From: a virus
Taxonomy: Duplodnaviria > Caudoviricetes
DNA: 51,905 nucleotides
IMG/VR virus record: IMGVR_UViG_3300049026_000006
Coordinates: 1 to 51,905 of that record
Direction: 5' to 3' (one strand)
In this document: piece by piece, positions 3,850 through 26,507 of the stretch
Position numbering within the stretch: position 1 is the first letter of the stretch
How the letters are laid out: every line of letters begins with the position of its first letter
The notes under the pieces: model-generated
Databases searched by the model: none
Seen by the model: the letters and a program-made list of their open reading frames with translations, nothing else
What the model was told of the DNA's origin: nothing
Made by a program: the position numbers and the translations under genes

Positions 3850-4245
3850 TCAGCCGGCGCGGAACCGGATGTTCACGTTGATCTGGTAGAAGCCTTCAAA
3901 CTCGCCGGCAACCACTTGGCTGGCCTCCATGCTTTCAAAGTCACCGGACATCCAGTAGGCGAAGTGCGCTTCGAGCGCATCGGCCAGCTCGTTGATGGCC
4001 CTGGTCCCGGTGTGCACCCTGGCAAAGCACTGAGCGCTGATTTGCCCAGGCTTGCGGGTATATGGCTGGTCTGCCATGCCGGCCATGAAGGCCGTGCCGT
4101 ACTGGATATTCAGCCTGCACCAGAGTCCGGTCGCCGGCGGCGTGAACACTTCCGGCTGGTTCGGGTAATCGATCCGCGCCTGGTCAATGCCAGTGAAGGC
4201 CACCATGCGTCCGGTGATGAGCGCCCTGATTTGCTCGAAGGTCAT
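3850..4245 (-). CDS. Tail terminator/completion protein
   Basis: 131 aa immediately upstream of the tail tube gene; YPN..F.PP..GLWCRL and C-terminal YQINVNIRF patterns. Confidence 0.7.
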   Translation of the reverse strand: MTFEQIRALITGRMVAFTGIDQARIDYPNQPEVFTPPATGLWCRLNIQYGTAFMAGMADQPYTRKPGQISAQCFARVHTGTRAINELADALEAHFAYWMSGDFESMEASQVVAGEFEGFYQINVNIRFRAG

Positions 4246-4820
4246 GTTTTGTAGGCCTCGGATACGCTGATGAACGCTAGGTCATAGACCCCGTTGGGCG
4301 CTTGCTTGGAATGCCCAAGCTCGATCATTTCCCCGTAGGGGATGTTCGTTTGGATGTAGATGACGGGGAACTGGCCTGAAGCCCTGATTAGCATGCCGCC
4401 CTTGCTGATCGTTTCGCTGCCTGACGGGTCTATGTTTTCGGTTATGGACATGTCTGGCGCGCCGATAGAGACCGTATGGCTGCCACGGTATCTGCCGCCC
4501 ACATAGCCCTGCCCAGCTGCCTTGGCGTCGACAAAGAAGTTCTCTTTGCGCTCACGCTGAGTCAGCTTCTTGAATTTCTTGCGGCCAGTGTTGCTGGCGT
4601 TGCGTGCATCGACATTGGCGTCATAGGCATCGGCCAAAGCCACGTTCCTGCTTTTGAGTGCGATGTTCGCCTGCCAAAGGTCGGGGTTGCCGACAGGAGA
4701 GCGAGCCACAACCTCATTGAGCATCGCCAGTGCAATAGCACGAGCCATTTCCGTAACTTCCTCGCCAGCCTGATCTGCGAATTCCGTTAGGCTGTGACTC
4801 CAGCCGGCTTTAGCTGCCAT
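4242..4820 (-). CDS. Neck/tail morphogenesis protein (HK97 gp10-like)
   Basis: RSPVG...GRYRGSH...IYIQTNIPYGEMIELGHSKQAPNG motifs; synteny. Confidence 0.75.
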   Translation of the reverse strand: MAAKAGWSHSLTEFADQAGEEVTEMARAIALAMLNEVVARSPVGNPDLWQANIALKSRNVALADAYDANVDARNASNTGRKKFKKLTQRERKENFFVDAKAAGQGYVGGRYRGSHTVSIGAPDMSITENIDPSGSETISKGGMLIRASGQFPVIYIQTNIPYGEMIELGHSKQAPNGVYDLAFISVSEAYKT

Positions 4821-15794: not shown

Positions 15795-16000
15795 CCCTGA
15801 ATAGGTGCGCAGTCTTTCCCGCTGTCTGCCGAAGGCCTTCGCAACGTCGACGCCCCACTGCATCGATCTCGCCGCTCAAGTCTCGCGCCGCCCTGGAAGT
15901 CGGGTGTGAACAGGGTGCGCGGGCTGCCGGTGTTCTTTCGTGACGCGTGACTTCCGGCTATACCGCGTCCAGGCCTTCCCGAGGGCTGCCCTGGCTACAG
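15795..16000 (-). ncRNA. Putative structured RNA in the late leader
   Basis: No credible ORF; nested stems CCAGG/CCTGG, CGCGG/CCGCG, GCCGG/CCGGC, CCCTG/CAGGG, TCGATGC/GCGTCGA; ends in GACAGCGGGAAAGACTGCGCAC. Confidence 0.45.
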
Positions 16001-16412: not shown

Positions 16413-17090
16413 TTATGCCGCTTCCTGCTCTTTTTCCGCGTGAATCACCTGCCAGATTGGCTGTTGAGCCTGAATATCCACTTCCTTGATCACTTCTTTC
16501 AGGGATTCCCACAAGGTCTGCCAGTCGCGATTCCAGTGCTTCGGCTCTATGGATACGCCGAAAAAGGTATCCATCTCGGCCGCCACCCGGGCCGGCCCCC
16601 ACTCAGCCGCACCGTGGACTTCCCCCTTGTACGATTGCAGCGCCATGGTGACCAGATACTGGGCCTTCACCCGTTTGGCGGATGTCAGGTCAGGCAGTGC
16701 GGCCTTGGCGGTGATCAACAGCACCGCATTCATGACGTGCCGCATGTTCATCGCCGGGTGGTACAGGTAGTGGCCGAACTGCTGCACCTGAAATGGCAGC
16801 GTGTCGATTGCCCGAAGCACCTTCCCAATGGTCGCCAGATGCGCGGCACGGGCAGTGGACCGGCCAACCGGAGTACGGCGAGTCTCGCTGATGCTGATCT
16901 TCTGGCGAACTACCTGGATGCGTTCCTCCTTGTCCTCGCCCAAGGCCGCGAACACGGCCTCATGGCGCCGCATGCGGGTGCCCTTCTTCACTGGTGCGGA
17001 TGCCGCCTTGTCGATTGCTGCAGCGCTGATCGACGCGTTCGATTCGTGCTGAGCCTCGGTCCATACTTGCCTTGCGTTGATCAGCTTCAT
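16413..17090 (-). CDS. Late antiterminator (Q-like)
   Basis: 225 aa after ninG and directly before PR'/tR'; call rests mainly on synteny. Confidence 0.65.
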   Translation of the reverse strand: MKLINARQVWTEAQHESNASISAAAIDKAASAPVKKGTRMRRHEAVFAALGEDKEERIQVVRQKISISETRRTPVGRSTARAAHLATIGKVLRAIDTLPFQVQQFGHYLYHPAMNMRHVMNAVLLITAKAALPDLTSAKRVKAQYLVTMALQSYKGEVHGAAEWGPARVAAEMDTFFGVSIEPKHWNRDWQTLWESLKEVIKEVDIQAQQPIWQVIHAEKEQEAA

Positions 17091-22410: not shown

Positions 22411-22623
22411 TTACCCCGAAGAGTCCCTGCCTGAGGCCCTCATTGGGGGCACCAGCTGAAGGACCTGGGCCTTCTTCCTTCCAACTTCTGAAAGTGCGCC
22501 ACTGGCAATGGCGGTTTCCGTCATTTCGTTGATCGCACGACTGAAGCTCCAGCCGTTCGCGCGCATCAATTCCTCCACCCTCTGTCGAGTCCGCGGAGGC
22601 AGCCTTTCAAGCTCTACGGTCAT
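22411..22623 (-). CDS. Small DNA-binding-like protein
   Basis: 70 aa with GGAGG RBS, in the cII position. Confidence 0.6.
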   Translation of the reverse strand: MTVELERLPPRTRQRVEELMRANGWSFSRAINEMTETAIASGALSEVGRKKAQVLQLVPPMRASGRDSSG

Positions 22624-22642
22624 TTGGCCCTCCAAAGGGGCT

Positions 22643-22843
22643 TCAGCCCGCGATATCTTCTTGTTTATCCTGCATCAGTTCCTCGATCACGCCGTTGGCT
22701 ACGGCCCACTCGATGATTTCGTACAGGTAGGTCGCGTGCTGCATGCGGGTCTTGGTTGCGGCTTTACGCAGAATCCGATCAAGCACTGGTTCGAATCGAA
22801 CCTTCACCGGGATGGCGCGCTTTTGATTGGGGTCCATGTACAT
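22643..22843 (-). CDS. Ribbon-helix-helix-like regulator (cII position)
   Basis: MYMDPNQKRAIPVKVRF...; AGGAG RBS; directly after cro. Confidence 0.65.
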   Translation of the reverse strand: MYMDPNQKRAIPVKVRFEPVLDRILRKAATKTRMQHATYLYEIIEWAVANGVIEELMQDKQEDIAG

Positions 22844-22872
22844 GCTTCGATGCTCCTGGCTATTGAGGTGGG

Positions 22873-23082
22873 TTAAGCGGCAGATTTCTTGGTCGAGCTG
22901 GCAGGGTCATCCAGGCGGCTCGCGGTGAGCTTCCCGGCGGATTCCTTTTCCAACACGCATTGCATTGGGTAGGAGAAGCCGCCGGCGGATCGGCACTGCG
23001 AGACGCGGCTCCGGGTGACGCTTAATGCATCACCGATGGCGCCGGGCGTACCGAAGAATTGCAGGGCTTGGTCATAGGTCAT
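22873..23082 (-). CDS. cro: Cro repressor
   Basis: 69-aa HTH, MTYDQALQFFGTPGAIGDALSVTRSRVSQ; divergent from cI. Confidence 0.85.
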   Translation of the reverse strand: MTYDQALQFFGTPGAIGDALSVTRSRVSQCRSAGGFSYPMQCVLEKESAGKLTASRLDDPASSTKKSAA

Positions 23083-23110
23083 TTAAGGTTTCTCCACTTC
23101 ACTGCATCGG

Positions 23111-23175
23111 AGTTTAGAAATATTAACAAGAAAAGGCAAGTTATCTAAACTGCTCAATGTTTAGAATCCTTAACC
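23111..23175. promoter_or_regulatory. OR operators (three 18-bp sites) with PR and PRM
   Basis: AGTTTAG-AAAT-ATTAACA (23111), AGGCAAG-TTAT-CTAAACT (23134), TGTTTAG-AATC-CTTAACC (23158). PR on the minus strand is TTGCCT-N17-TAAACT; PRM -10 TAGAAT at 23162. Confidence 0.8.
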
Positions 23176-23889
23176 ATGAATTTCAGCGAACGAGTTAAAG
23201 AGCGCATGGCGGCCTTGGGGCTACGTGCGACCGATATAAGCGAACGGACAGGCGTCTCTCGGACGACCGTCTCCTTTTGGCTGTCTGGAACGAACGGGGC
23301 GAAGGGGAAGAACCTTTTGTCCCTGGCTAAGGCCCTGGACTGCTCGCCGGAGTGGCTATCGAGTGGAGCGGAGCCGGTGCAGCCCGGGAGGCAAGTCAAC
23401 CTGTCCTCTATTGATGCGTGGGATGACGAAACTCCGCTCGATGACGACGAGGTCTACGTACCATTTCTTGAGGAGGTCGAACTGGCTGCAGGTTCTGGCC
23501 GCTTCGCGATTGAGGAAAGCGACAGCGCCAGGCTGCGGTTCTATAAGAAGGACTTGCGCAACAACAATGTGCAGTTCAGCAACGCCAAGTGCGTCATGGT
23601 CAGCGGCAACAGCATGGTCCCCGTCCTGCGCGACGGTGCCACCGTAGGTATCAACGTCGGCAAGAACTCTTTGCGCGACGTGGTGGACGGCGAGATGTAC
23701 GCGATCAACCATAACGGCCAGCTTCGCGTGAAGCAGCTATACCGGCTTCCAACGGGGATTCGCCTGCGTAGCTTCAACCGCGATGAGCATCCCGATGAGG
23801 ACTACACCTTCCAGGATATCCAGGATCAGCAGATCGTGATCCTCGGCCATGTCTTCTGGTGGGCGATGTATTCCCGCAGCCCTTCGTAA
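23176..23889 (+). CDS. cI: CI repressor (HTH plus S24 autopeptidase)
   Basis: N-terminal HTH, AG cleavage site (LAAGSG), catalytic GNSM and RVK. Confidence 0.95.
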   Translation: MNFSERVKERMAALGLRATDISERTGVSRTTVSFWLSGTNGAKGKNLLSLAKALDCSPEWLSSGAEPVQPGRQVNLSSIDAWDDETPLDDDEVYVPFLEEVELAAGSGRFAIEESDSARLRFYKKDLRNNNVQFSNAKCVMVSGNSMVPVLRDGATVGINVGKNSLRDVVDGEMYAINHNGQLRVKQLYRLPTGIRLRSFNRDEHPDEDYTFQDIQDQQIVILGHVFWWAMYSRSPS

Positions 23890-23906
23890 CCTCCCCTCAC
23901 CGAATT

Positions 23907-23931
23907 AGCCCGCCGCCGAGCGGGCTTTTTT
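23907..23931 (+). terminator. cI terminator
   Basis: AGCCCGC-N6-GCGGGCT plus T tract. Confidence 0.8.
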
Positions 23932-23939
23932 GTGCCTGG

Positions 23940-24013
23940 AATTCAGGCTTCTAAACTTTTTGTTAAGTTTTCTAAAAATAAGGCTTGACCAATCTTGTTA
24001 AGTTTTCTAAATT
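23940..24013 (+). promoter_or_regulatory. OL operators (three sites) and PL promoter
   Basis: AATTCAG-GCTT-CTAAACT (23940) and TGTTAAG-TTTT-CTAAA (23961, 23996); PL is TTGACC-N17-TAAATT (23985..24013). Confidence 0.85.
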
Positions 24014-24060
24014 CACCTCAACGCCAACGCAAGAAGGCGCCAGGGCCTCAACAGTCCCGC

Positions 24061-24069
24061 CGCTCTTTA
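24061..24069 (+). promoter_or_regulatory. boxA antitermination element
   Basis: CGCTCTTTA about 40 nt after the PL start, followed by the hairpin GCCGG-ATTACCA-CCGGC. Confidence 0.7.
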
Positions 24070-24381
24070 GCTCCACCCCTTGCCGGATTACCACCGGCCC
24101 AGATTCAAAGGCAGCGATGAACCGGCCTAAACGGTTCAGAGGGTTGGCAACTGACCCGGGCGTGCAGCGTAAAGCGCCAAGAACAGTTATCCAGCGGGAG
24201 AACAAGCCGAAAGGCCCGCGGCTGGAGGAACAACTTGATTGAGCCCGTACCGCGCCAGTAGCGCCGAAGGGACACGTCAAACACAGATGGCCCCCTGCTG
24301 TTTCAGGTCGGCCATCTGGCTTTACAAATGCCTCTCACACCCCGGGAGGTATTTGAAAGCCAAACAACGGAGCATGACGAA

Positions 24382-24561
24382 ATGGCCTTTAAGTCATTCA
24401 CTAAAGAAATCGCTGTCGAGCAGGCCCGCTACTTCAGCCATGCGGCAGTGTTTGCAGCAAAGCTCGGCAGTCTCCCGGCCACTATCGAAATGTGCCGCAA
24501 GCGCCGCGATGAATGGATGCGTGTTGCTCGCGGCGAGATTCGTCACCCCTTCTTCGCATAG
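24382..24561 (+). CDS. Small basic protein, first PL gene
   Basis: 59 aa with GGAG RBS; MAFKSFTKE...CRKRRDEWMRVAR. Confidence 0.55.
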   Translation: MAFKSFTKEIAVEQARYFSHAAVFAAKLGSLPATIEMCRKRRDEWMRVARGEIRHPFFA

Positions 24562-24624
24562 ACAACCAGCGCCACGACAGCCTGTCGTTAACTGCCCGAG
24601 CACCTGGTACTCCCCAGCACCAGG

Positions 24625-24752
24625 CCGCATCGGAGTGTGATCTGCCTGCACCTAAAAACATATGCCTCTCTTGGGGAGGCGGGTGATCTAGCAGGTTTCG
24701 ACCGGTAATCCGGACAGGCTACCCCGGACTGGCAGATCACACCCCGATGCGG
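24625..24752 (+). repeat. 22-bp inverted repeat enclosing an 84-nt structured loop
   Basis: CCGCATCGGAGTGTGATCTGCC / GGCAGATCACACCCCGATGCGG, 21 of 22 pairs. Confidence 0.85.
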
Positions 24753-24795
24753 ACGAAACTGCGGCCTATAACCGCCCACCTGCATCACCGCAACA

Positions 24796-24993
24796 CGCAG
24801 ATGAATGCCCGGGCTGACGGGCAAGTGTAAGACCTGAGGGATCGCGGGAATCGTGGCCGGTAGAGTGAGTAAGCGCCCAGATGGCCACGGCGAGTCCAAG
24901 AATAAGCGGCTGAAACCTTCGCCCCGGTGAAACTCCGGTGTCACTAAGGCCGCTAATAGTCATGCCGGGATCAGCTCCGGCCATCTGCGCCCA
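24796..24993 (+). ncRNA. tRNA-shaped ncRNA with large internal insert
   Basis: 8-bp acceptor CGCAGATG/CATCTGCG plus CCCA; 6-bp D-like stem (loop GGCTGA); 5-bp T-like stem (loop GATCAGCT); no anticodon arm. Confidence 0.6.
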
Positions 24994-24994
24994 T

Positions 24995-25097
24995 CGGCGA
25001 ATAGCTCAACCCGCATTGCGCAGGGTCAGCGCCAACCTGGTATTGGCGAGCTACCTTGATCTGGCACAAGCGCCGTGACAGCCGGGAAAGACCGCAC
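24995..25097 (+). ncRNA. Multi-stem RNA module ending in a GACAGCCGGGAAAGACCGCAC motif
   Basis: Nested stems CGGCG/CGCCG, TAGCTC/GAGCTA, ACCC/GGGT, CGCCAA/TTGGCG, CTTG/CAAG. Confidence 0.45.
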
Positions 25098-25118
25098 ACA
25101 CCCCAACCGGAGATCACC

Positions 25119-25289
25119 ATGCTCCTACTGATCCTGATCGGCGCAGCGCTCAGCCATGCGCGGCCAGAACCGCCACCTGATGACGGCCTGCCAACCGGTC
25201 CATTGCGCTTACACCGTGAGCGCTGGCGATGTACCGAGGGTCAGCGTTCGTTCTGGTGCGCGCTGCCCCGATCCAAATCCTCAAGCTGA
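25119..25289 (+). CDS. Small hypothetical protein with hydrophobic N-terminus
   Basis: GGAG RBS; MLLLILIGAALSH. Confidence 0.55.
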   Translation: MLLLILIGAALSHARPEPPPDDGLPTGPLRLHRERWRCTEGQRSFWCALPRSKSSS

Positions 25290-25439
25290 CGCTGCATCAT
25301 TCGAAAAGGCCTTTCTGTCCAGTTGGGCCTTTTCACTTCCCGACCAATCCCGCATGCACATGACACCGCGCCCAACGGCAACCAGCGGAAGGATCGTGTG
25401 CAGCCGGGATTTGTTGGATCAACCACAGAGGTATTTGCA

Positions 25440-25709
25440 ATGCGACCAGTTATGACGATGGCCCCGGTCTGGGAGGCAAACAAGAAAGTCGGCTTCAGCG
25501 ACCTGCGTGAAGCCCGTTTCCACCAGTGGGCCAATGAGTATGAAGAGTTCGAATCCGGCCCAGGCAACTACACCGTTGCGCTGGTTGAGTATGCGGATGG
25601 CTCCATCGGCACGGTGATGCCTGATTGCATCCGCTTCCTTGATGGTGAGGAAGCCACCGCCGCCAGGATGGATGAAGCAATCGCGAGCATGTCCAGCCTC
25701 GTCCTGTAA
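25440..25709 (+). CDS. Hypothetical phage protein
   Basis: GAGG RBS; FHQWANEYEEFESGPGNYTVALVE...IRFLD pattern. Confidence 0.7.
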   Translation: MRPVMTMAPVWEANKKVGFSDLREARFHQWANEYEEFESGPGNYTVALVEYADGSIGTVMPDCIRFLDGEEATAARMDEAIASMSSLVL

Positions 25710-25730
25710 CCCAACCAGATGGAGAGAGTC

Positions 25731-25943
25731 ATGAGCAGAGACGACGGCGGCCCAGCTTTCCCAGGCACCGCAGAGAATTACAAGTACGAAGGCTGCGCAG
25801 GCATGTCCATTCGCGACTACTTCGCGGCCAAGGCGATGCAGGGATGGACATCGAACCCGCTGCCTAATGAATCGTCGATTCAAGAAGTTGCTGAATGGGC
25901 ATATCGCCAGGCCGACGCCATGCTCGCCGCCCGCTCCGCCTAA
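25731..25943 (+). CDS. Hypothetical phage protein
   Basis: GGPAFP...GMSIRDYFAAKAMQG...AYRQADAMLAAR, a widespread phage family. Confidence 0.8.
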   Translation: MSRDDGGPAFPGTAENYKYEGCAGMSIRDYFAAKAMQGWTSNPLPNESSIQEVAEWAYRQADAMLAARSA

Positions 25944-25964
25944 CCCCAAACACTGGAGGTCGCC

Positions 25965-26258
25965 ATGAGCGATTGGATCAAGTGCAGCGACAGGTTGCCA
26001 AGCCAGCTTTCAGGTACAGCCAATGAATACATTGTCTGCGCCGTCGCAGAGGGGAAGCAATACGTTTTCTCGGCGCAATGGCTGGAAGGCTACGCCCTTT
26101 ACAACCCTGATGACGACAGCAGCGAAGAAGATGGAATGACCGAGGGTCATGGCTGGTACGACGTGAAAGAGAACGCGGACTACGACGGCTGGTACTACCC
26201 GATCAAGGATCGCGAAGTCACGCACTGGCAGCCGCTCCCTGCCCCGCCAACCGAGTAA
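25965..26258 (+). CDS. DUF551-family protein
   Basis: WIKCSDRLP...VTHWQPLPAPP. Confidence 0.85.
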   Translation: MSDWIKCSDRLPSQLSGTANEYIVCAVAEGKQYVFSAQWLEGYALYNPDDDSSEEDGMTEGHGWYDVKENADYDGWYYPIKDREVTHWQPLPAPPTE

Positions 26259-26264
26259 GCCGAC

Positions 26265-26486
26265 ATGAGCAACTGGATCAAGTGCAGCGACAGGCTGCCC
26301 GATCTGCCGAAGGGTGGCGGCAAGCACCACGTCATCGCCTACACACCCGCCAGGGCAGCACAGCGGTTCGCCAATGGTTCGTGCTTCCTCTACTGGAACG
26401 GCATCGACTGGCGCTACGCGGACGGCTCTCGTTTCGAGCATCGCGTCACGCATTGGCAGCCCTTCATCACCGCGCCCACCGACTGA
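26265..26486 (+). CDS. DUF551-family protein (tandem paralog)
   Basis: WIKCSDRLP...VTHWQPF. Confidence 0.8.
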   Translation: MSNWIKCSDRLPDLPKGGGKHHVIAYTPARAAQRFANGSCFLYWNGIDWRYADGSRFEHRVTHWQPFITAPTD

Positions 26487-26507
26487 ACCGCCACCCTGGA
26501 GGCAACA

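Follow-up and report, generated by a model that had tools for sequence, protein, structure and literature searches.

The stretch of DNA analysed here, called the window below, is the whole of the IMG/VR virus record IMGVR_UViG_3300049026_000006 (51,905 nucleotides, nt), a lambdoid Pseudomonas phage or prophage. Its subject is the leader at 24014-25118, which lies on the transcript strand (+) of the leftward early promoter (PL), downstream of the repressor gene cI, of the terminator of that gene and of PL with its flanking operators. Judged by comparison with related sequences, this first kilobase from PL is mostly non-coding and appears to consist of widely conserved, independently exchangeable folded-RNA modules. 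A preliminary description of the same DNA had placed on the PL strand an array of separate structured modules, and the elements it named are all present: the boxA, a long stem, a tRNA-shaped and a multi-branch module, and the hairpins TGAACCG/CGGTTCA (24118-24138), TCCAGC/GCTGGA (24190-24226), CAGATGGCC/GGCCATCTG (24284-24318) and CAAATGCCTC/GAGGTATTTG (within 24318-24361). The best explanation, which we hold to be probably right, is that the interval from PL to the first conserved early gene consists of independent, evolutionarily mobile structured RNA elements, assembled as a mosaic on the + strand of the early-left transcript, with one variable small open reading frame (ORF) among them; this estimate covers the whole statement and is weighted to its demonstrated part. 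Apart from the slot of that ORF, which encodes 59 amino acids (aa), the region has no conserved coding capacity. Three of its modules, region A, E1 and E2, each appear to belong to a widespread RNA family of Pseudomonas phages and prophages whose helices are kept by compensatory changes, and the comparative evidence makes it very likely that these are real structured RNAs of the + strand. The features of the locus are as follows.

23907-23926: intrinsic terminator closing the cI gene.

23960-23976 and 23995-24011: two copies of a 17-bp operator around PL, found by an operator pattern scan.

23985-24013, + strand: the PL promoter, TTGACC-17-TAAATT, found by a promoter scan.

24061-24070, + strand: boxA-like sequence CGCTCTTTAG.

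24082-24098, + strand: the GCCGG hairpin, of 5 bp with a 7-nt loop, recurring in relatives.

24110-24270, + strand: region A, a pseudoknotted leader RNA defined by an alignment of 116 distinct sequences, with helices H1 (24118-24138), H2 (24141-24157), H3 (24159-24178) and H4 (24190-24226) and a CAGUA-loop hairpin (24252-24264).

24149-24153 with 24184-24188: the region A pseudoknot, added by hand to the four helices of RNAalifold.

24284-24361, + strand: two strong adjacent hairpins before the 59-aa ORF, with a minimum free energy (MFE) z-score of -7.1.

24382-24561, + strand: the 59-aa ORF, with GGAG 8 nt upstream, an orphan in a variable gene slot.

24562-24786, + strand: E1, from a pattern scan and pairing counts. 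Its 5' parts are a scaffold (24562-24574), stem P1 (24575-24587), a joiner (24588-24599) and stem P2 (24603-24624); the long stem P3 (24627-24646 with 24731-24750) surrounds an 84-nt cargo; its 3' parts are a tail (24751-24759), stem P4 (24761-24775) and CCACCUGCAUC (24776-24786).

24796-24989, + strand: E2, a tRNA-shaped kissing-loop module, with an 8-bp closing stem (24796-24803 with 24982-24989). Its 5' strand leads into AAU and a hairpin of 5 bp whose loop is GGCUGA (24807-24822). An insert of 141 nt comes next, and last a second hairpin of 5 bp, with GAUCAGCU as its loop (24964-24981), abutting the 3' strand.

24994-25094, + strand: block D, a conserved non-coding multi-branch fold, 100-101 nt of which are identical elsewhere; the multi-branch block of the preliminary description spans 24990-25094.

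25119-25289, + strand: 56-aa ORF with a hydrophobic N-terminus and GGAG 7 nt upstream, the first conserved protein gene past the array.

Comparison with phage records by BLAST reveals sharp-edged blocks of this leader in other Pseudomonas phages, where they occupy gaps without annotation and in every case lie downstream of a repressor gene. Module swapping across Pseudomonas prophages, with conserved scaffolds and variable inserts, had been set beforehand as a check on the proposal of an RNA array, and its outcome is positive.

Could the region simply code for protein? A Shine-Dalgarno sequence precedes only the 59-aa frame in the ORF list of the leader, which bears out the earlier statement that this is the single credible ORF and leaves the stretch essentially non-coding. 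The 59-aa product matches no Pfam or PHROG family and has no tblastn match in 360 related loci (large protein databases were not searched), and its stop codon adjoins the start of E1. The 56-aa ORF has 15 tblastn matches in the same 360 loci, and identity is 57-83% in the 12 of these that were compared. A coding reading would instead rest on an Arg-rich, N-like peptide of 41 aa at 24117-24242 together with micro-ORFs; the frame begins MNRPKRFRG, which resembles an arginine-rich motif, and a 41-aa coding sequence is annotated at the same place in phage PseuP_224. Its length is not conserved, however: of 132 distinct relatives, 39 reach a stop within 4-9 codons of the ATG in H1, and in the others the frame runs for 18-338 codons. 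Its first codons form H1, which changes compensatorily, and it has no Pfam or PHROG match, so that it was rejected as a gene and a protein-coding region is scarcely credible. The preliminary description had also found no recognisable N gene, and this holds: no N-like protein was detected by Pfam or PHROG among six ORFs, including four small ORFs of the leader region, or among ten further ORFs on the PL side.

Region A begins 97 nt past the -10 hexamer of PL, and its pattern recurs in at least 120 viral contigs. Of 132 distinct loci, 98 have a boxA and 67 have the GCCGG hairpin in the 100 nt ahead of region A, and 127 have one or both; promoter and operator-like sequences stand before region A in the relatives listed. 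In the alignment of 116 distinct copies, the RNAalifold fold with the added pseudoknot comprises 27 pairs, and 99.7% of cells are paired across these 27 pairs and 116 sequences. Two-sided changes occur at 13 of the 27 pairs against 5.2 ± 1.4 in shuffles (none of 500 shuffles reaches this number), and pairing falls to 19-44% when the partners are slid. Three of the five pseudoknot pairs covary, as do the four positions on each side of H1 that the search pattern left free. G.U pairs are frequent on the + strand (one pair is G.U in 61 sequences and G-C in 54), and region A is on that account taken to be an RNA read in the direction of PL. The module also heads tailocin clusters: it lies downstream of prtR in such a cluster of P. 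fluorescens, and a copy of this kind stands at about 1906-2054 of locus L127 (DVM-2008). Short resemblances to the ends of Pseudomonas CRISPR repeats sit within the covarying H1 and have no partner hairpin, and the idea of a repeat mimic was weighed on that footing only.

The position of region A invites comparison with two known leaders. In the lambdoid phage HK022, which lacks N, the put RNAs act on RNA polymerase without protein factors, from copies behind both PL and the rightward promoter (PR), each a fold of two stem-loops of about 70 nt. Region A resembles putL and putR as a cis-acting RNA directly behind an early promoter of a lambdoid phage without N, and it is proposed to render RNA polymerase termination-resistant. 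It differs in its length of about 150 nt and its pseudoknotted fold of four or five helices, in usually following a boxA, in standing as a single copy at PL only, and in having, in half of its relatives, a terminator-like hairpin at a nearly fixed distance. The lambda nutL/N leader, which contains an RNase III site, shares the order of promoter, boxA, hairpin (here at 24082-24098) and long structured leader, but the present leader lacks an N gene, is five times longer and is built of exchangeable modules, and the 7-nt loop of its hairpin is unlike the 5-nt GNRA-like loop of boxB.

Region A, behind PL and boxA, may make RNA polymerase resistant to termination, or may gate a terminator. Its action could be processive and put-like, aided by boxA and Nus factors, or that of an attenuator where a terminator follows; either way the long untranslated RNA would escape Rho, and tailocin and early operons would be read through without an N protein. 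We lean, by a small degree, towards region A controlling elongation or termination in one of these ways. A narrower version would have it as a sensing attenuator, riboswitch-like or factor-responsive, that acts on an adjacent terminator and is no processive antiterminator. This version draws on the conserved pseudoknotted leader with its invariant loops and on a terminator-like hairpin with U-run (AGCCYGG-loop-CCGGGCU-UUUU). In half of the relatives (64 of 128) such a hairpin ends +158 to +304 behind region A, its ends clustering at nearly fixed spacing (+186-195 and +223-231), while controls have one in 31 of 331 segments. Half of the relatives, the window included, nevertheless have no such terminator, the boxA in 98 of 132 loci points to elongation control by Nus factors, and neither a ligand nor a competing antiterminator helix was identified, all of which makes a pure attenuator rather improbable. 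Control of elongation by region A has its own difficulties in the window: the pattern, searched with up to three mismatches, matches once in the 51.9 kb and nowhere behind PR, and the consensus scan found no terminator-like site in 24014-25440, which leaves region A nothing to act on there.

A search pattern defines the second family, E1; it matches at least 120 viral contigs and, in representative genomes, 120 sites or more, with Pseudomonas in 64 of the 80 titles listed. Its 5' part is nearly invariant, comprising an unpaired stretch, P1 (CG-N-CAGCCUG-N'-CG) and the AACUGCCCGA joiner, after which comes the variable P2. At 235 of 248 sites the two unfixed positions of P1 are complementary to each other, and a fold of four or more pairs is formed by 89 of the 94 different P2 segments. 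The long stem that follows had been described as having 22 bp. A long stem is there, but in the window 19 of 20 positions of P3 pair, with one A.C mismatch, and the MFE fold contains 21 pairs. Its base is an invariant 7 bp (GCAUCGG/CCGAUGC), and the next ten positions are hypervariable, with 83 distinct arms among 171 distinct arm pairs. Despite this variation the arms still match: over the 171 arm pairs 85.1% of cells at positions 9-18 are paired. Shuffling the partners lowers this to 57.1% (59.9% at most), and sliding them to 29-43%. Across the family pairing stays high through position 18 and falls at 19-20. These pair counts are anchored and ungapped; a MAFFT alignment of 46 copies (hypervariable 3' arms scattered, a few false anchors) was left unused.

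The cargo enclosed by P3 measures 47-411 nt and forms 93 clusters in 195 copies; the commonest P3 arm surrounds 33 of these clusters, and cargo clusters occur with many different upstream genes and tails. The cargo of the window recurs only in locus L054, where the upstream gene, P2 and tail are all different. Of 191 cargos sorted by type, 16 have a T-loop-like end and nine belong to the kissing-loop modules, which leaves 166 in neither class. Together, these counts portray E1 as an invariant scaffold and 7-bp stem base that carry an extension of the stem, about 11 bp long and hypervariable yet still pairing, and a cargo that is exchanged freely. In 96 of 119 E1 loci the sequence upstream holds an open frame, at least 45 codons long, whose end falls 10-27 nt short of P1, and in 131 of 248 a cI-like gene lies upstream on the same strand. 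In phage MD8 (L005) a HigB/HigA-like toxin-antitoxin pair and a gene with an immunoglobulin domain lie between cI and the gene before E1 (208-1069); this example shows how much cargo can be accommodated between the repressor gene and E1.

Inverted repeats around variable DNA might also be explained at the level of DNA, as sites of recombination or cassette exchange, or as remnants of miniature mobile elements at mosaic boundaries, with no RNA function. The module boundaries do match mosaic joints, the variable DNA is flanked by the invariant 7-bp inverted repeat, and an A.C mismatch recurs in the stem. The excess of G.U over A.C in P3 (58 against 22), with G.U pervasive in region A, is an asymmetry that fits an RNA of the + strand and not duplex DNA. 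The same arms around 33 cargo clusters mean that arms and interior do not move as one, and it was on this finding that a miniature transposon with terminal repeats was rejected; the orientation of the modules relative to the operon is also constant. For these reasons a purely DNA-level origin is very unlikely. An integron attC-like site was weighed informally, and nothing like an R-box core was seen.

In tandem after E1 in the window comes E2, a type of module that in other phages is itself the cargo of E1. Its two loops can pair over 5-6 bases. The 360 loci hold 38 distinct candidates, with inserts of 35-155 nt; the closing stem has at least seven of its eight pairs in 34 of them, against a maximum of 6/8 when the 3' arm is shifted. 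The stems covary (GCGCA/GCCCG/GCCCA; GCCGG/CCCGG/TCCGG). The label of tRNA-shaped, given to this module in the preliminary description, is right as to topology, and to topology only: neither ARAGORN nor Rfam reports a tRNA here. ARAGORN finds no tRNA gene in the window and gives one match in 248 sense-strand E1 segments; a call of 'tRNA-???' inside the stem of locus L112 was dropped, as it was not found in a single-strand ARAGORN rerun. The likeness to tRNA-like RNAs such as those of phage tRNA clusters and the bacterial, Y RNA-like YrlA lies in the closing stem, the D-like and T-like hairpins, the pairable loops and the T arm abutting the 3' strand, shared by E2 and some E1 cargos. These modules differ from tRNA in having no anticodon arm and no cloverleaf recognised by ARAGORN or Rfam, and from YrlA in carrying their long stem in the acceptor position, where YrlA has it at the anticodon position.

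Block D, which follows E2, recurs over 100-101 nt without a single difference in three other loci (L051, L009 and L001, the last being phage Medea1), and with no variation no covariation signal is possible. About 250 nt downstream of the Medea1 copy, in the same gene-poor leader, ARAGORN calls a tRNA-Met at 4219-4296, which an Rfam search of that locus did not confirm, reporting no tRNA at E up to 1; the sequence may be another tRNA-like module and not a true tRNA.

What might the stems of E1 and E2 do? They may be processing stalks, 18-20 bp long, on which RNase III or another double-strand RNase acts, a proposal drawn from their constant length and their position between cistrons. Cutting would part the upstream from the downstream mRNA and free the cargo as a small stable RNA. 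We regard such processing as possible, though we would not count on it. The nearest models are the ribosomal RNA (rRNA) leaders and the RNase III sites of phage T7, where a boxA heads a long untranslated transcript and flanking duplexes of about 20 bp enclose structured RNA or part cistrons; a near-perfect duplex of about two helical turns around an enclosed RNA is also what P3 offers, with 19 of 20 positions paired. Unlike those of rRNA stalks, the enclosed RNAs are hypervariable at 47-411 nt, and the invariant 5' scaffold with P1, P2 and joiners has no counterpart there. Of the put, nutL/N, rRNA and tRNA-like RNAs with which the leader was compared, and which are the closest known systems, it would seem a full member of none.

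Another account stops at the stem. The RNase III sites of T7 early RNA and of lambda sib are models for elements that act only in cis, and E1, E2 and the hairpins could likewise be intercistronic elements of mRNA processing, stability or insulation, with the cargo as functionless filler. E1 begins at the stop of the upstream ORF in 96 of 119 loci, the ribosome-binding site of the next gene lies about 20 nt after the stem in some loci, no shared protein partner was found, and the cargo is extremely diverse, 166 of 191 copies falling in neither recognisable class. The cargos, on the other side, hold covarying sub-helices of their own and recurring designs (kissing-loop modules, T-arm-like ends, 34 modules with a closing stem), identical cargos persist intact amid changed flanks, which suggests selection on the cargo, and the long invariant unpaired stretches of the 5' scaffold are needless for a simple RNase III site. 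An action in cis and nothing else is rather unlikely, though to be taken seriously.

The alternative is that the freed cargos would work in trans on a fast-evolving target, a view prompted by cargos that are diverse yet keep conserved internal helices; action in trans is doubtful as the evidence stands. In its most pointed form this becomes an arms race, in which RNAs released by the stems, tRNA mimics or other decoys, would either titrate a factor of the host's defence or RNA processing or bring about exclusion between phages, the diversity of the cargo reflecting diversifying selection. The 93 cargo clusters in 195 copies, the 83 upper-arm variants and their free reassortment accord with it, as do the tRNA-like topology (closing stem, AAU, D-like and T-like hairpins with complementary loops), the T-loop-like motif in 16 of 191 cargos and the location of the elements in the first transcript made on induction. 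The single ARAGORN match in 248 segments and the lack of any tRNA by Rfam run counter to it, and GGA motifs in the leader are not enriched (18 against 18.2 ± 3.2 expected), a count on which an Rsm/CsrA sponge was rejected; we think this form unlikely. Rather unlikely, too, is the bolder idea of E1 and E2 as an RNA cassette system, in which a fixed scaffold and stalk in the first transcript would present and release interchangeable small RNAs, some of them tRNA mimics, swapped by recombination at the invariant 7-bp stem base and each neutralising or exploiting a different factor of the host or of a rival phage.

The reading of the leader as a mosaic of structured RNAs, and what is built on it, must be set against several findings. 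Simple hairpin counts are close to chance and only slightly enriched: the leader holds nine perfect hairpins of at least 6 bp against 5.8 ± 2.3 in shuffles (the mean of 44 other tiles of the window is 6.4), four of at least 7 bp against 1.6 ± 1.2, and two of at least 8 bp against 0.4 ± 0.7. MFE z-scores are unexceptional for region A (-0.9), E2 (-1.7) and block D (+0.4), where four control segments range from +0.5 to -2.1. At position 8 of P3 the A.C mismatch recurs in 40 of 171 arm pairs, and together with the 22 remaining A.C-type pairs it leaves room for a role at the DNA level or on the minus strand. T-loop-like (16 of 191) and kissing-loop (9) cargos are scarce, and beyond cI no protein family is shared by more than 79 of the 248 E1 loci. 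Region A and E1 are moreover unlinked: they occur together in 17 loci, region A without E1 in 77 and E1 without region A in 66, so that the modules are not one system. In the 17 loci with both, region A always comes first, 467-1874 nt upstream of E1. The only match in an RNA library is a 242-nt contig of a rhizosphere metatranscriptome, identical to 24849-25090 (0 differences), and its ends coincide with no module boundary; it is a weak hint of RNA abundance, as contig ends need not be RNA ends, and stretches that no contig covered were given no weight as evidence.

The adjacent hairpins at 24284-24362 (z = -7.1), E1 (-4.4) and its long stem (-3.8) are unusually stable, and sliding 150-nt z-scores, ordinary elsewhere, stand out at 24275-24424 (-6.1) and 24575-24724 (-2.8). 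The hairpin pair has an MFE of -44.4 kcal/mol against -22.0 ± 3.2 in shuffles, none of 200 being as low, and it is common to just two of 128 loci compared, too few for covariation. It is covariation, and not the number of hairpins, that lifts the features of the leader above chance.

Searches for known families put the modules outside current catalogues. Rfam 15 gave no match in 22500-26500 at E up to 10, and in ten related loci (65.7 kb) only sub-threshold chance matches at terminators (Trp_leader and similar models). Above gathering score, the sole Rfam family in the whole window is the Proteo-phage-1 RNA (RF03044), elsewhere at 15922-16000 on the minus strand (72.9 bits, gathering score 42), just downstream of a weak Q-like gene (16416-17090), where it may be a leader of the late operon. 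It shows that phage leader RNAs of such a kind have already been catalogued by comparative genomics, but its locus beside the Q-like gene, its strand and its structure are all different. A literature search, whose coverage did not extend to subscription journals, found no description of the region A, E1 or E2 modules, and a term search of PMC12066065 met the 516-bp prtR1-hol intergenic region and no RNA element.

If the mosaic reading is true, temperate phages of Pseudomonas and tailocin clusters carry in their earliest transcripts at least three abundant, uncatalogued families of structured RNA. Region A could then account for terminator read-through without an N or PrtN-type protein, a long-standing gap in the regulation of Pseudomonas phages and tailocins. 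For the architecture of E1 and E2, with invariant scaffold and stem base, hypervariable stem and exchanged cargo, we are aware of no described RNA counterpart; diversifying selection on a locus would be expected to leave such a pattern, which makes E1 and E2 candidates for RNA-based counter-defence or inter-phage exclusion. An RNA cassette, were it to exist, would be the RNA counterpart of the hotspots of protein anti-defence genes. Cultured carriers of these modules are at hand in Medea1 and phiPSA1, which grow on P. syringae, in PseuP_224, which grows on P. protegens, and in MD8.

The surrounding genes are those of a lambdoid early region. The repressor gene cI (S24 and helix-turn-helix domains, 23176-23889, + strand) faces a Cro-like gene (22876-23082, minus strand), both recognised by Pfam and PHROG. 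Besides the two operators around PL, the 17-mer has two further sites, with 2-3 mismatches, in the gap between cro and cI, making four matches in the window against 0.02 expected, and as the promoter and the cro-cI gap have these operators in common, the promoter at 23985-24013 is identified as the repressor-controlled leftward promoter. On the PR side PHROG matches include Ant, an O-like initiator, NinB, NinG and a weak Q-like protein; on the PL side, besides a RecE-like exonuclease, there are only small proteins to which no function is assigned, and nothing N-like.

A few minor observations complete the description. Three runs labelled RNA-Seq (X16-X18) gave, on 23900-25400, near-identical sets of contigs of up to 62-64 kb at even depth, along with short high-depth contigs at conserved module cores; they look like a genome with several related prophages and not a transcriptome, and are uninformative on expression. 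On the minus strand a terminator-like hairpin with U-run lies inside the E1 cargo at 24664-24680, and it is probably fortuitous, the region having four such sites against 3.5 by chance. After the 56-aa ORF, at 25303-25334, stands a 9-bp hairpin with a 13-nt loop and a 3' arm ending in UUUUC; it may be a weak terminator, which the size of its loop kept out of the consensus scan. Between this hairpin and the next gene a conserved non-coding block on the + strand (25340-25440) contains an RNAalifold hairpin, AUGCACUC/GAGUGCAU around CCGC..GCGG, from whose consensus the arms in the window differ. The block recurs in 47 of 360 loci, as 42 distinct copies, and the RNA array therefore seems to extend past 25118.

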